64,000 nucleotides of DNA from an uncultured Gemmataceae bacterium (GTDB lineage: Bacteria > Planctomycetota > Planctomycetia > Gemmatales > Gemmataceae): assembly GCA_963750165.1 (NCBI GenBank), contig CAVVPN010000003.1:1-64000 (forward strand). Reading direction: 5' to 3'. Under the pieces are notes generated by a model. That model worked only from the letters and a program-made list of their open reading frames with translations. It had not been told where the DNA came from and ran no database searches. The position numbers and the translations under genes are program-made. Within the stretch, counting starts at the first letter, position 1, and each line of letters starts with the position of its first letter. Positions 21,455 to 57,152 of the stretch are shown one piece after another.

Positions 21455-24142
21455 TCATCCGCCCAACTTTTCGCGCACCAGCTTCGCCGCGAGTTGCAGC
21501 GCCTCCGCGAGCTTCGCGGGCTCCTTGCCGCCGGCCTGGGCCAGCGTCGGCTTGCCGCCGCCGGCGCCGCCCACGACCTTCGCCACCTCGCCGACCAGCT
21601 TGCCCGCGTGCAGTCCCTTCTTGACCAGGTCGTCCGTCACGCCCGCAAGCAGGCCGACCTTGCCGTCCTCCGTCCAGCCGACCAGCACCGCGGCACTGCC
21701 CGCTTTCTGCTTCAGCCGATCCACCTGGTTGCGCAACTGCTCGTCCGGTGACGCCGGCAGCTCACCGATCATCACCTTCGCGTCGCCGACCACCGCCGCC
21801 GCGTCGAACAATTTATCTGCGACACCCTGCAAATCCGCCGCGGCGCCCTTTTTGAGCTGCTGCTGCAATTTCTTGATCTCGTCCTGCAACTGCTCGACAC
21901 GGCCCGGCAACTCCTCGGGCTTGCAGTTGAAGCGGCCCGTCAGCGTGTCAAGCACCGACGCCAAGCGCTGCACGGTGGCGACCGCCCCACGGCCGGTGAC
22001 GGCGGTGACGCGGCGCACGCCCTTGGCGACCGCCTCCTGGCTGACGATCTTGAAGAAGCCCGCCTCGCCGGTGTGCGTCAGGTGCGTGCCGCCGCAGAAC
22101 TCCACCGAATGCTCCGGCGTCGCCTGCCCTGGCGCCGCGGCACCGATCAGCAGCACGCGCACCGGGTCCGGGTACTTCTCGCCGAAGACCGCACGCACGC
22201 CGGCAATCTGCTTCGCCTGCGTCAGCGGCAGCGTCACCGGCGTCACCGGCAGATCCGCGTAAATCCGCTCGTTGACCAGCCGCTCGACCTCCGCGACCTG
22301 CTCCGGCGTCAGCGGCTTATCATGGGCAAAGTCGAAGCGCGTCTTCTCCGCATCGACCAGCGAGCCTTTCTGCTCGATGTGCTCGCCGAGGACGCGGCGC
22401 AGCGCCCAGTTGAGCAGGTGCGTCGCGGTGTGGTTGCGCATGGTGTCGGCGCGGACGCCGTCCACCGCCGCGGTCGCCGACTGGCCCGGCTCCAGCGCAC
22501 CGTCCACGACGCGGCCGACGTGCAGCACGCTGTCGCCGAGTTTCTGCGTGTCCTCGACCTCGAAGCGGCCCGTCGTGGTCGTGATGCTGCCCACGTCGCC
22601 GACCTGGCCGCCCTGCTCGGCGTAGAAGTTCGTGCGTTCCAGCAACAGCGCAACCTCGTCCTCGCCGCCGAGGCGACCGGACTTCACCACGGCGTTGTCC
22701 TTGACCCAACCAAGCACCTTCGCGTTGACCGCCAGGCCAGCATACTTGGCGGCGTCGTCGGTCTTCGGCAGATCGCCCTGCACCGCGGTTACGACGAACT
22801 TCTTGCGCGACGCCCGCGCCCGCTTCTTCGCCTCATCCAACTCGCGCTGGTAGCCGGCGCGGTCCACCGTCAGGCCCGCCTCGTATGCCATCTGCTCGGT
22901 GATGTCGATGTAGACGCCGTAGGTGTCGTGCAGCGTGAACGCGTCCATGCCGCTGACGACGTTGGTGCCGTTCTGCCGCGCCCGCGTCGCCGCCTCCTCG
23001 AACAGCTTGATGCCGCGATCCAGCGTGCGGATGAAGCTCTCCTCCTCCTCGCGGATCATGTCGATCACCTGCTGCGGGTGGCGCTTCAACTCCGGGAACG
23101 CGCCGCCCATCGTCTCCACCACCGTCGGCACCAGGTCGCACAAAAACGGCTTCTTCGCGCCCAGGTATTGCCGGCCGTAGCGCTCCGCCCGGCGCAGGAT
23201 GCGGCGCAGCACGTAATTCCGGCCGGTGTTGCCCGGCCGCGCCCCGTCCGTCAGCGCGAACGTCAGCGCCCGGATGTGGTCCCCGATGACGCGGTACGCC
23301 GTGTCCTCGTGGCGGTCGAGCCGGAACGTGTACGGCCCCGCGCCGGTCACCTTCTGGATCGCCGCGAAGATCGGCGAGAACACGTCCGTGTCGTAATTGC
23401 TGTCCTTGCCCTGCAGCACCGCCGTCACGCGCTCGAAGCCCATGCCCGTATCGACGTGCTTCGCCGGCAGCGGCGTCAGCTTTTTATCCTCGCCGCGATT
23501 GAACTGGATGAACACCAGGTTCCAGATTTCCATCACCTCCGCCCGACCCGCGTTCACCAAATTGCCGCCGCTTTTGTCCGGCGTGCGGTCGATATGGATT
23601 TCGGTGCAGGGGCCGCACGGCCCGGTGTCGCCCATCTCCCAGAAGTTGTCCTTCTTGTTGCCGAAATGAATGTGGGAATGGTCAATGTCCGTGACCGTGC
23701 GCCACAGTTCCGCCGCCTCGGTGTCGGGCTCCAGGCCCTCGCCGCCCTCGAACACGGTCGCGTGCAGCCGGCTCCTGTCGAGGCCCCACACCTGCGTCAG
23801 CAGCTCCCACGCCCACGCGATCGCTTCCTTCTTGAAGTAATCGCCGAACGACCAGTTGCCGAGCATCTCGAAGAACGTGTGATGATAGGTGTCCTTACCC
23901 ACGTCGTCGAGGTCGTTATGTTTACCGCCGGCGCGGATGCACTTCTGCGTGTTCGCCGTGCGCCTGTACGGCGGGCTGGCGGTGCCGAGGAAGTACGGCT
24001 TGAACTGGTTCATGCCGGCGTTGGTGAACAGCAGCGTCGGGTCGTCCAGCGGCACAACACTGCTGCTCGGCACGAACGTGTGGCCGTGCTTCTTGACGAA
24101 GAAGTCGATGAACTCCTGACGAATCTGGTTCGCGGTACGCAT
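21455..24142 (-). CDS. alaS: Alanine--tRNA ligase
   Basis: 'DPTLLFTNAGMNQFK', 'HHTFFEMLGNWSFGDYFK', 'DTGMGFER', editing motifs 'NHTATH' and 'EFCGGTH', C-terminal GGGKP.LAQAGG. Confidence 0.98.
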   Translation of the reverse strand: MRTANQIRQEFIDFFVKKHGHTFVPSSSVVPLDDPTLLFTNAGMNQFKPYFLGTASPPYRRTANTQKCIRAGGKHNDLDDVGKDTYHHTFFEMLGNWSFGDYFKKEAIAWAWELLTQVWGLDRSRLHATVFEGGEGLEPDTEAAELWRTVTDIDHSHIHFGNKKDNFWEMGDTGPCGPCTEIHIDRTPDKSGGNLVNAGRAEVMEIWNLVFIQFNRGEDKKLTPLPAKHVDTGMGFERVTAVLQGKDSNYDTDVFSPIFAAIQKVTGAGPYTFRLDRHEDTAYRVIGDHIRALTFALTDGARPGNTGRNYVLRRILRRAERYGRQYLGAKKPFLCDLVPTVVETMGGAFPELKRHPQQVIDMIREEEESFIRTLDRGIKLFEEAATRARQNGTNVVSGMDAFTLHDTYGVYIDITEQMAYEAGLTVDRAGYQRELDEAKKRARASRKKFVVTAVQGDLPKTDDAAKYAGLAVNAKVLGWVKDNAVVKSGRLGGEDEVALLLERTNFYAEQGGQVGDVGSITTTTGRFEVEDTQKLGDSVLHVGRVVDGALEPGQSATAAVDGVRADTMRNHTATHLLNWALRRVLGEHIEQKGSLVDAEKTRFDFAHDKPLTPEQVAEVERLVNERIYADLPVTPVTLPLTQAKQIAGVRAVFGEKYPDPVRVLLIGAAAPGQATPEHSVEFCGGTHLTHTGEAGFFKIVSQEAVAKGVRRVTAVTGRGAVATVQRLASVLDTLTGRFNCKPEELPGRVEQLQDEIKKLQQQLKKGAAADLQGVADKLFDAAAVVGDAKVMIGELPASPDEQLRNQVDRLKQKAGSAAVLVGWTEDGKVGLLAGVTDDLVKKGLHAGKLVGEVAKVVGGAGGGKPTLAQAGGKEPAKLAEALQLAAKLVREKLGG

Positions 24143-24147
24143 GAGAG

Positions 24148-24201
24148 GAAAGTACTATGTACGAAGTACGAAGTACGAAAAAAAGAAAAAAGGAAGAAGG
24201 A
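24148..24201. repeat. Left arm of inverted repeat around the four-helix-bundle gene: (GAAGTAC)n plus purine tract
   Basis: GAAAGTAC TATGTAC GAAGTAC GAAGTAC GAAAAAAAGAAAAAAGG; reverse complement of 24619-24672. Confidence 0.85.
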
Positions 24202-24219
24202 TACAAAGCTGACAACGAG

Positions 24220-24600
24220 TCAGGGTTTGTTCTGAGCCTTCTTGAGGATGGCGGTCAGTATCATGATTAACTCTTCGGATTCGCGGAGCAAGGGTTGTCC
24301 CGCGGCCGGGGCGACGATCTCGCTGGCGACCAACAACCGCAGCCAGTATCGCGTTTCTCGTGCCTCCTTGCGTGAGATCGAATACTTCGAGATAAAATCG
24401 GCCCGGCTCTGGCCGGCCTTGCCCTCTTCCACGTTGGCCCCAATAGAAGTCCCCGACCGCAATAGTTGATTCGCGATCGTCCTCGGCACCCCCGGCTGTC
24501 TTGACAGCGATTGACACAATTGGATGATGCGGAGTGCGAATTGAAACGTCCGTTCGCATAAATCAAAAGGCGGCTGAGTTTCTGTTCGACCGTTCTCCAT
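24220..24600 (-). CDS. Four helix bundle protein (23S rRNA intervening-sequence protein / Avd-like family)
   Basis: 'DL.ERTFQFALRII', 'IANQLLRSGTSIGANVEE', 'QSRADFISK..I.RKEARET.YWLRLL', 'ESEEL..IL.AI'; lower GC than neighbours. Confidence 0.92.
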   Translation of the reverse strand: MENGRTETQPPFDLCERTFQFALRIIQLCQSLSRQPGVPRTIANQLLRSGTSIGANVEEGKAGQSRADFISKYSISRKEARETRYWLRLLVASEIVAPAAGQPLLRESEELIMILTAILKKAQNKP

Positions 24601-24618
24601 GTTCCCCCCTTTTTCTTT

Positions 24619-24672
24619 TCCTTTCTTTTTCTTCTCTTTTTTCGTACTTCGTACTTACTACTTCGTACTTTC
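24619..24672. repeat. Right arm of inverted repeat around the four-helix-bundle gene: pyrimidine tract plus (GTACTTC)n
   Basis: TTTTTTC GTACTTC GTACTTA CTACTTC GTACTTTC; overlaps the larC stop codon. Confidence 0.85.
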
Positions 24673-25830
24673 TTCATAGCCGCGCTGCGCTGCCAAATAC
24701 ACCTCCCGCAAAGCCACACCGCGTTCCCGGGCGACGCGGGCGCAGTCCTCGTACTCCGGCGCGAACACCGGTGGCCGGCCGTCGCGCCAGCCGAGCTTGC
24801 CCTGCACCGGCCCCCACGGGGTAGACACCGTGACCGCCCGCCGGTTCAACTTCGACCGGCTCACCACATACCGCCGCACGCCGAACGTCGTCGTCTCGCG
24901 GAACAGCACATCCTCCAGCGCCGCCAGCGTCGCCGGCTCCGCGAGGAGGCTCAGCAGCACGCCAGGCCGGTTCTTCTTCATGAAAATCGGCGCCGTGAAC
25001 ACGTCGAGCGCCCCGGCGGCGAACAGCTGCTCGACGCAGTAGCCGACCCACTCCGCGGGAAGGTCGTCCAGGTTTGTTTCCAGCACCCACACCTGATCGC
25101 CCACGGCCGGCGCCTCCGCGGCGGTGCCGACGAACAGCCGCAGCAGGTTCGGTTGCTCGACGAACTCGCGCCGCCCGGCGCCGTGGCCGATGCGCTCGAT
25201 GGTCAGCGCCGGCTGCTCGACCCACTCCTGCACGACGGTAGTGAGGATGGCGGCACCGGTCGGCGTGGTCAGTTCGGCCCGGACGGGGCTGGACCGCAGC
25301 GGCACACCCCGGAGCAGTGCGGCGGTGCCAGGCGCCGGCACCGGCATGATGCCGTGGGCGCACTTGACGGTGCCGCTGCCGACCGCGACCGGGCCACTGC
25401 TGAAGCGCGCCACGCCGAGCAGGTCCAGCGCTACCGCGGCGCCGGCAATGTCGGCGATGCTGTCGAGAGCGCCGACCTCGTGAAAGTGGACCTTCTCCAG
25501 TGGCATCCCGTGCGCTTCCGCCTCGGCCTCCGCCAGCCGGCGGAAGATGCGTAGCGCCAGGTCGCGCTGCGGCGGCGTCAGGCTGCCGCGGTTCAGGATC
25601 GCCTCCACGTCGGGCAGGAAGCGGTGTGTGTGCTCCTCGGCGGCCGTGACGCGAACGTGGGTCGCGGCGAAACCGCCCTTGTGGACCTTCTCGACCTCGA
25701 CATTCACGGGCAGGCCCAGCGAGGCAATCGCGCCGAGCACCGGTTCCTGGGGGACGCCGGCATCGAAGAGCGCGGCCAGGGTCATGTCGCCGCTGATGCC
25801 GCTGAAACAGTCGAAATGGGCCACGCGCAC
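24658..25830 (-). CDS. larC: Nickel pincer cofactor biosynthesis protein LarC
   Basis: 'FDCFSGISGDM', 'HFHEVGALDSIADI', 'PVPAPGT', 'ELTTPTGAAIL', 'ETNLDD', 'MKKNRPG', 'PEYEDC'; GTG start with GGAGGA RBS. Confidence 0.93.
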   Translation of the reverse strand: MRVAHFDCFSGISGDMTLAALFDAGVPQEPVLGAIASLGLPVNVEVEKVHKGGFAATHVRVTAAEEHTHRFLPDVEAILNRGSLTPPQRDLALRIFRRLAEAEAEAHGMPLEKVHFHEVGALDSIADIAGAAVALDLLGVARFSSGPVAVGSGTVKCAHGIMPVPAPGTAALLRGVPLRSSPVRAELTTPTGAAILTTVVQEWVEQPALTIERIGHGAGRREFVEQPNLLRLFVGTAAEAPAVGDQVWVLETNLDDLPAEWVGYCVEQLFAAGALDVFTAPIFMKKNRPGVLLSLLAEPATLAALEDVLFRETTTFGVRRYVVSRSKLNRRAVTVSTPWGPVQGKLGWRDGRPPVFAPEYEDCARVARERGVALREVYLAAQRGYEESTK

Positions 25831-25938
25831 GGGTCGGTCCTCCTCCGCCGGGAATTTTACGGCGCGGGCAGACCAAAACCCAGCAAGTCGGGGGAACTGG
25901 GTGCATCCCTGTAGTGGCAGGGGCAGCGAATCACCTTC

Positions 25939-26411
25939 GTGGGACGATTCTCCAGAGCCGTCGCAGCGCCTTACACAGGGCCCGGTGGAGGCTGTCCGGT
26001 TCGTAGTACCGCCTTTAGTGCGCATCGCGGTCGGGTGTAGCGGTCTGTTCGTAGCGGAAGTCGCCAGACTTCCGTAGCGGCTTCGGAAGTCTGGCGACTT
26101 CCGCTACCCCCAAACGCCAACCGCTCTCGAGCAGTTCACAGTCGCGTGGACCACGAATGGCAGGACGGCGCTCCCCCGGCGCCGAATCTCGACGTGTGAA
26201 AAAGTTGGCCCCCTTGGCCCCCTTGGCCCCCTTGCTGTGGCAGTGCAGGCCGCTGAAGGTCAGGCCGTGCCCGCCGTCTCACCCGTGCCACGTCATGTGC
26301 GCCTGCCCTTCGTGAACCGCTCCAGGTGTCAGATTCCGCCTAAAGGCGGTACTACGAACCGGACAGCCTCCACCGGATTGAGAATTAGACGGCTCTGGAG
26401 AGCCGTCCCAC
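25939..26411. repeat. Nested REP/MITE cluster
   Basis: Outer arms 25939-25962/26388-26411, inner arms 25982-26018/26340-26376, REP doublet 26051-26107, MITE 26129-26324. Confidence 0.8.
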
Positions 26412-26533
26412 AAAGCGACCCCGGCGCAGCTACGCGGATGCACCCGGGGGAAATGTGGCGGAACTTCCCCTGGTGCTTTACAATGAGGACAACGACTCGC
26501 TCCGACCCACCGTTGCTCCACTCGGGAATAACC

Positions 26534-57037: not shown

Positions 57038-57152
57038 AGTCCTTAGTCATTGGTCATTAGTCATTAGTTAACAGGGTTTCAGATCCAAGCAAAAGTTTAG
57101 GTTTCGACAGCGACCCAGATAACTAATGACTAATGACCAATGACTAAGGACT
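57038..57152. repeat. Inverted repeat of 7-mer tandems (TAGTCAT), empty
   Basis: Perfect 33-bp arms AGTCCTTAGTCATTGGTCATTAGTCATTAGTTA / TAACTAATGACTAATGACCAATGACTAAGGACT. Confidence 0.9.

Follow-up and report, generated by a model that had tools for sequence, protein, structure and literature searches.

The larC–alaS junction of an uncultured Gemmataceae bacterium, within the 64 000-nt stretch of DNA that was analysed (the window), carries what we interpret as a promoterless mobile cassette of ~530 bp, in which a four-helix-bundle gene is enclosed by inverted heptamer arms and encodes a predicted ring protein that would recognise the unit of its own arms. We assign this reading a probability of about 0.5.

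All coordinates in this paragraph refer to the minus strand unless otherwise stated. The 5′ arm of the cassette (24619..24675) consists of four GAAGTAC/GAAGTAG/TAAGTAC units with a spacing of 7 nt (at 24670, 24663, 24656 and 24649), followed by a purine tract, while the 3′ arm (24145..24201) consists of a pyrimidine tract followed by four GTACTTC-type units (at 24176, 24169, 24162 and 24155, also 7 nt apart). The arms are inverted, 57 nt each and 77 % complementary. Between them lie a G-run (24604..24609), which by its position is a putative Shine–Dalgarno-like sequence for the cassette gene, the 126-aa four-helix-bundle gene itself (24220..24600; TIGR02436/PF05635) and a 5-bp hairpin over its stop (24209..24223) that is terminator-like by pattern only, with three hairpins of this type found against 1.4 expected. 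One sigma-70-like site, positioned antisense (24501–24528), was found against 0.2±0.5 expected. The gene is lower in GC (55.9 %; GC3 67 %) than its neighbours (67–71 %; GC3 89–91 %), and tandem GAAGTAC is unique to this locus in the 9.6-Mb genome. Upstream, the stop of larC (24658..25830; TIGR00299/NF052512) is a TAG at 24660–24658, inside the 5′ arm; downstream, the ATG of alaS (21455..24142; TIGR00344) lies 5 nt from the firm end of the stem at 24148, with a weaker pair stretching the stem to 24145; the 3′ arm stops 2–5 nt ahead of this ATG, and the alaS initiation region falls within that arm and lacks a purine-rich Shine–Dalgarno sequence. These data bear out the initial annotation, which had described a low-GC 126-aa gene in inverted GAAGTAC arms, one of them giving larC its last codons and stop (the 5′ arm does encode E-S-T-K-stop) and the other stopping 5 nt short of the alaS ATG, as is the case for the firm stem end.

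The larC start at 25830 was set by our own codon model. The open frame extends beyond it to 26025, a falsely long N-terminus created by REP-like repeats upstream of larC (25985–26016, 26043–26115 and 26344), among which there is also a long perfect hairpin; a REP-like 20-mer occurs there on both strands and has four exact copies genome-wide. Ribosome stalling has been described at E. coli REPs near stops.

The locus lies between larC and alaS and not inside an rRNA gene, with no rRNA match in 23500–26500, and an Rfam scan of it returned two weak matches that we ascribe to chance. No transposase was detected among the neighbours of the cassette gene, no template/variable repeat pair of a diversity-generating retroelement (DGR) was found in 23800–25000, where the neighbours are larC and alaS with no reverse transcriptase (RT), and the ends of the cassette show no target-site direct repeat.

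It had been proposed that the gene belongs to a mobile cassette that has neither a transposase nor an integrase, and that larC–alaS junctions of relatives should be aligned in search of empty sites. The comparison was made with 29 alaS loci of relatives (30 including our own), drawn from 39 genomes with a match, and a search with the family profile found the gene at none of the 29. larC was located ≤1.5 kb upstream of alaS in 11 of these relatives, with a spacer of 25–171 nt in six and 468–1048 nt of other sequence in five; the empty larC–alaS alleles come from family-level relatives only, not from the same genus. The 29 empty relatives, the at least 22 contexts in which close homologues are found and three filled/empty pairs (both described below) support the proposal, and we consider it very probable that the cassette is an inserted mobile unit. 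In the relative whose alaS is most similar, the larC–alaS junction carries a different hairpin, built from 9–10-nt arrays, which starts in the last codons of larC and supplies the larC stop; this is an independent use of the same spot.

Insertion could be followed at base level in three readable filled/empty pairs among Nostoc plasmid homologues, in which the insertions end at the arm tips; these are homologues at 46–54 % identity with other units, not the larC–alaS locus, and deletions could postdate insertion. In the first pair, a 524-bp cassette breaks an HTH gene of which five other plasmids have an intact copy, its 5′ end bringing an early stop into the gene, and a direct repeat (11 bp exact; 18 bp by BLAST overlap) is present at both ends but single in the empty allele. 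In the second and third pairs, the inserts have replaced stretches of host DNA of 188 and 328 bp, the longer one within a methyltransferase gene, and the empty alleles hold five and seven unit bases near the 5′ junction. A fourth pair was too diverged to read. Identical Nostoc flagelliforme copies were considered as separate jumps and rejected, as they represent one insertion on a duplicated plasmid module. Cassette ends show no excess of direct repeats (8/141 versus 8/141 controls), and there is no duplication of fixed length. One duplication and two deletions point to a discrete unit whose joining step is variable and repair-like, not the work of a DDE transposase, and from the variable target duplication or deletion and the short unit matches at two junctions, we infer that, at entry, the host would join the arm ends in a repair-type reaction.

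For the larC–alaS cassette itself, the last codons of larC are the likely site of insertion. Cassettes would survive mainly at gene ends because there the stop comes from the 5′ arm and the gene is read by host transcription, and the insertions inside genes indicate that survival accounts for at least part of the preference for such ends. Two Nostocales plasmid homologues with 62–63 % identity are positioned antisense between cas1 and cas2, and another homologue, also antisense, fits precisely into the gap from a stop to an ATG.

Inverted arms accompany the gene family widely. Our sample comprised 222 loci (232 matches, 205 distinct full-length, 192 with 200-nt flanks) and leans to this phylum and to homologues of this protein. 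Inverted arms were present at 150/192 loci, compared with 10/400 mismatched flank pairs and 10/1180 small genes of the same genome as controls, and arms in direct orientation at 26/192; in 42/192 loci, arms were missing at the chosen cut-off. The concern that homologues might lack such arms was, on these counts, not realised. A period of 7 dominates, the median cassette size is 490 nt, and of 125 cases, 83 and 91 have arms with four to five units, short arms having been excluded by the filters. None of the 19 family loci without called neighbours contained rRNA. No homologue was found in viral contigs, while phage records contained two distant, unannotated ones.

Comparison of these sequences indicates that units go with the protein and not with the host. 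For the 125 loci at which the unit was clear, unit similarity climbs with protein identity, and the nearest protein in another genome surpasses same-genome family genes in unit likeness in 38/46 cases. The closest homologues of the cassette protein come from other phyla (up to 69 % identity) and occupy 22 flank groups among 35 loci, with neighbours including ribD, dnaA, gap, hemD, maf, nuoA/B and restriction genes. AAG is found in the unit of 34/34 close homologues with a clear unit versus 6/57 distant ones, and when counted without the arm filter, AAG..AAG before and CTT..CTT after the gene were found for 39/46 homologues (≥55 % identity) versus 7/100 distant ones, and never swapped. Among held-out plasmid homologues, AAG units were present in 2/2 from Nostocales at 62–63 % identity and in 1/9 at 46–54 %. 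An enrichment of stop triplets in the units was considered and rejected (30/68 versus 27.8 expected).

The cassette protein matches TIGR02436 (E value 1.9e-26, 92.4 bits, cut-off 24) and PF05635 (E value 3.3e-21, 75.9 bits, cut-off 33.8). Its structure model (pLDDT 93) is an all-helical bundle with helices at residues 14–33, 38–61, 66–92 and 98–124, in which a nuclease fold is absent and no catalytic motif was recognised. The best structural matches are 2RLD (BT_0352; E value 1e-7, 40 % identical, rmsd 1.3 Å) and 2GSC (Xcc0516), with the DGR protein Avd (4DWL) weaker at 17 % identity; the four-helix bundle is common to the cassette protein, these two proteins and Avd (4DWL, 8UB7). The PDB entries 2RLD and 2GSC have five chains each, from which a homopentamer is inferred for the cassette protein. 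In Avd, flipped-out RNA bases are bound in crevices between its five protomers, according to the accessible part of 10.1101/2023.10.23.563531. The Avd system has an RT, a template and a variable region, none of which lies beside the cassette gene. We propose that the protein forms a predicted Avd-like five-part ring that probably binds its own heptamer units, which would likely aid the persistence and spread of cassettes and gene-less hairpins. Recognition of its own unit by the protein we regard as moderately probable; that the protein is needed for spread is a more tentative suggestion.

The association of gene and arms could also arise if the hairpins spread by slippage or through an outside transposase and the gene merely rides in the loop, the protein being unrelated to their movement and the unit tracking it by linkage. 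We consider this unlikely, but several observations fit it. A search for residue-to-base pairing across 68 representatives gave no family-wide pass (best z 3.9 versus a threshold of 5.6), target duplication was seen in one filled/empty pair, and slippage-driven homogenisation with linkage could keep a unit core without protein contact. A generic hairpin pattern, which detects AG-core units only, was found among 41 genomes in 22/25 with the gene, a figure that speaks for the cassette reading, and in 4/16 without a detected gene, kin not being independent in this count, and one genome without a detected gene had 174 matches.

A further point in favour of such passive carriage comes from the GxxExxY family (TIGR04256), the second protein family found to have this design and unrelated to the first. 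Both GxxExxY genes of the same genome (contig C11, 2028518–2028868; contig C3, 2939393–2939737) have near-perfect inverted arms of 8–10-nt CACA(A/G)AG units; in relatives, such arms are found at 22/28 GxxExxY loci versus 94/756 mismatched pairs, and gene-less hairpins of this type number 60 in the genome against 0 of reverse polarity. The packaging does not need the four-helix fold, since GxxExxY has the same build. Against passive carriage, however, the AAG core persists in 39/46 homologues from several phyla despite saturated silent sites (28 % identity at four-fold sites among close homologues), the family genes of one genome differ in unit, the duplication length is not fixed, and no transposase or RT was found in 63 flanking ORFs of 34 clade members.

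The genome contains two TIGR02436 genes, both armed and with differing units (GAAGTAC and TAGTCAT), in agreement with the expectation that four-helix-bundle genes would be enclosed by inverted arrays genome-wide (2/2 here). The second cassette (contig C11, 1894926–1895440) has TAGTCAT arms that are 100 % complementary over 25 nt, begin at the upstream stop, which is given by the first unit, and end ahead of the next ribosome-binding site. A scan of the genome for inverted 7/8-mer arrays returned 85 sites, 83 of them <400 nt and two gene-bearing. The AG-periodic arm comes first and the CT-periodic arm second 63 times, with no case of the reverse. The TAGTCAT unit is common to 38 short sites, whereas the exact unit of the larC–alaS cassette has no gene-less copy in the genome, its AAG/CTT core occurring in nine hairpins. 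One gene-less TAGTCAT hairpin lies in the window at 57040–57150, with co-directional genes on both sides. AAGACA/TGTCTT recurs in the loops of gene-less hairpins from nine unit families, and a CCGAAGG/CCTTCGG mini-hairpin adjoins 9/85 sites versus 0 controls.

The positions of these sites are reminiscent of a domesticated regulator, that is, an RNA-binding switch acting on stop-to-start hairpins to tune downstream translation or mRNA decay, with insertions as rare side events. Of the array sites with both neighbours called (by our own simple gene caller), 61/75 lie between co-directional genes (background 2326/3396, 68 %), and most begin ~20 nt or less from a stop. Likewise, a same-strand stop is found ≤25 nt from the 5′ arm end in 115/150 cassettes of the family (control 11/143) and an ATG near the 3′ end in 65/150 (control 26/138). 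On the sense strand of cassettes, G·U pairs weakly exceed A·C (161 versus 129, p=0.07; 31 versus 13 of 68 representatives), and in the predicted fold, the region of alaS initiation is largely paired (mean unpaired 0.30). A regulatory role was also proposed for the TAACTGA arrays of Beggiatoaceae, which are in direct orientation, in the accessible part of PMC4679880. We nevertheless judge regulation to be quite unlikely as the main role, as the sites are patchy and lineage-specific with unrelated neighbours, some cassettes are antisense to the host operon or inside genes, gene-less hairpins show no G·U bias (22 versus 18), and the larC–alaS unit lacks exact targets in its own genome. A simple folding model gave no support for translational coupling, as the alaS start was not freed (0.34) when a ribosome was placed on the larC stop.

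The initial annotation had further suggested that the transcript folds so that the gene loops out on a long stem, which would place the stop of larC beside the start of alaS. The first part stands as a predicted fold: the transcript (minus) strand folds better than 100/100 shuffles (z=−3.9), and the arm duplex reaches −64.4 kcal/mol against −40.2±4.7 for shuffles that keep the composition of each arm, 0/300 of which were as strong. The predicted stem has 14 consecutive Watson–Crick pairs followed by an A-U/G·U tract. The second part does not, as the larC stop lies ~15 bp inside the stem, with its first base paired to 24160, a position 18 nt away from the alaS AUG.

An mRNA intervening sequence in the strong sense, with the stem excised and larC and alaS brought side by side through rejoining or translational coupling of the message, could draw on this long stem and on the RNase III gene found in the genome. 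The similarly built Coxiella burnetii intervening sequence (IVS) is cleaved in vitro by RNase III (PMC4990558, accessible part), and in 14/83 cassettes, the AUG lies 0–4 nt from the partner of the stop. However, that excision results in fragments and not in ligated RNA, the offset is 18 nt at larC–alaS and spreads broadly in other cassettes (−59 to +102 nt over the 83), and cassettes within genes add a premature stop and are hence not invisible; we regard this reading as very improbable. A joined mRNA splice is not expected, because rRNA IVSs are cut without rejoining. What is plausible is that the mRNA stem would be open to RNase III cutting without rejoining, as in those sequences. Public sequencing runs contained ≤0.10 of the words of the locus in any run, and four runs at 80 % likeness had almost no cover of 24204–24605 and no joint across the cassette among the 15 listed of 52.

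Finally, retro-mobility, in which the ring would load hairpin RNA onto a host RT in an Avd-like manner and the cDNA would be joined into the chromosome, could appeal to the fold held in common with Avd, to Avd being a required RT cofactor (10.1101/2023.10.23.563531, accessible part), to variable target outcomes that suit a sloppy joining step and to cassette ends that coincide with RNA stem ends, but it is scarcely likely given the absence of an RT from the 63 flanking ORFs, the 17 % identity to Avd and the occurrence of both orientations to host genes.

Returning to the mobile cassette with its own unit-reading protein, its closest parallel in build is the S23p IVS of C. burnetii (Warrier et al. 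2016, PMC4990558), which, as described in the accessible part of that paper, carries a PF05635-family ORF within a 28-bp terminal-inverted-repeat stem, has tandem heptamers (GACAGAT) in its 5′ arm, measures 430–530 nt, is patchily distributed and, on cleavage by RNase III in vitro, gives fragments with no ligation. The larC–alaS cassette is alike in these features of build, its stem being predicted, and the link to IVSs drawn by the initial annotation is upheld as a shared design. Unlike the rRNA IVS, the cassette occupies an mRNA stop-to-start junction, where its arm gives the host stop. The family is also present at scattered rRNA sites of CPR bacteria, according to the accessible part of 10.1101/2024.02.27.582315.

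Heptamer arrays have been described as intergenic repeats by Rehm et al. 2015 (PMC4692102), with GGGAATC in Xanthomonas and GGGGA(C/T)T in Nostoc, including gene-less inverted arrays near stops. These published arrays share with ours the 7-nt unit, about four units per array, inverted pairs, fixed orientation and a position near stops between co-directional genes. They differ in being gene-less, with no protein partner named in the accessible text, as is also the case for the Beggiatoaceae arrays, whereas the arrays here enclose a gene and follow its clade; the accessible texts of PMC4692102 and PMC4679880 contain no match to ‘four helix’. One GGGAATC array (PMC4692102, supplement 2, row 15) begins 6 nt past bccP and extends over the start of XCC0516, the family member with a solved structure; it is listed without an inverted partner and without comment in the accessible main text. 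We found no paper tying this gene family to heptamer arrays outside rRNA, most subscription papers and preprint supplements being outside the scope of the search.

In genome layout, the system resembles a REPIN/RAYT pair (PMC3337134 and PMC3116915, accessible parts), with one or two repeat-flanked gene copies per genome alongside many gene-less inverted doublets; the 83 short and two gene-bearing sites reproduce this arrangement. The gene, however, is PF05635 and not the HUH tyrosine transposase of RAYTs, and an all-helical bundle and tandem heptamers take the place of a tyrosine transposase and short palindromes. The cassette resembles the IVS in build and the REPIN/RAYT pair in layout and belongs to neither, since it lies outside rRNA and lacks a transposase.

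MITEs and mobile insertion cassettes form a further class for comparison, having terminal inverted arms, a cargo ORF and no internal transposase, as does this cassette. Among the Nostoc plasmid homologues there are also filled and empty alleles whose boundaries fall at the inverted repeats, as in MITEs. The cassettes studied here differ in showing no target duplication of fixed length and in having a unit that tracks the cargo protein and not a transposase family. Among cyanobacterial repeats, STRR is an established name, and TRAP serves as an analogy.

A broader generalisation, which we put forward as doubtful but possible, is that there is a widespread class of enzyme-free mobile cassettes whose ring protein reads the repeat of its own cassette, each subunit taking one unit, and drives host-joined insertion, that these cassettes and their remains make up the bacterial heptamer excess, and that GxxExxY is a parallel design. 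If the proposal is true, a very large protein family of ‘unknown’ function would gain a cheap test, each ring against its own 7-base unit, and the excess of heptamer repeats in bacteria would have a source. Mobility is testable, as filled and empty alleles exist on the plasmids of culturable cyanobacteria. The intervening sequences of rRNA would then be one of the places in which a general cassette, moving without an enzyme of its own, has landed.
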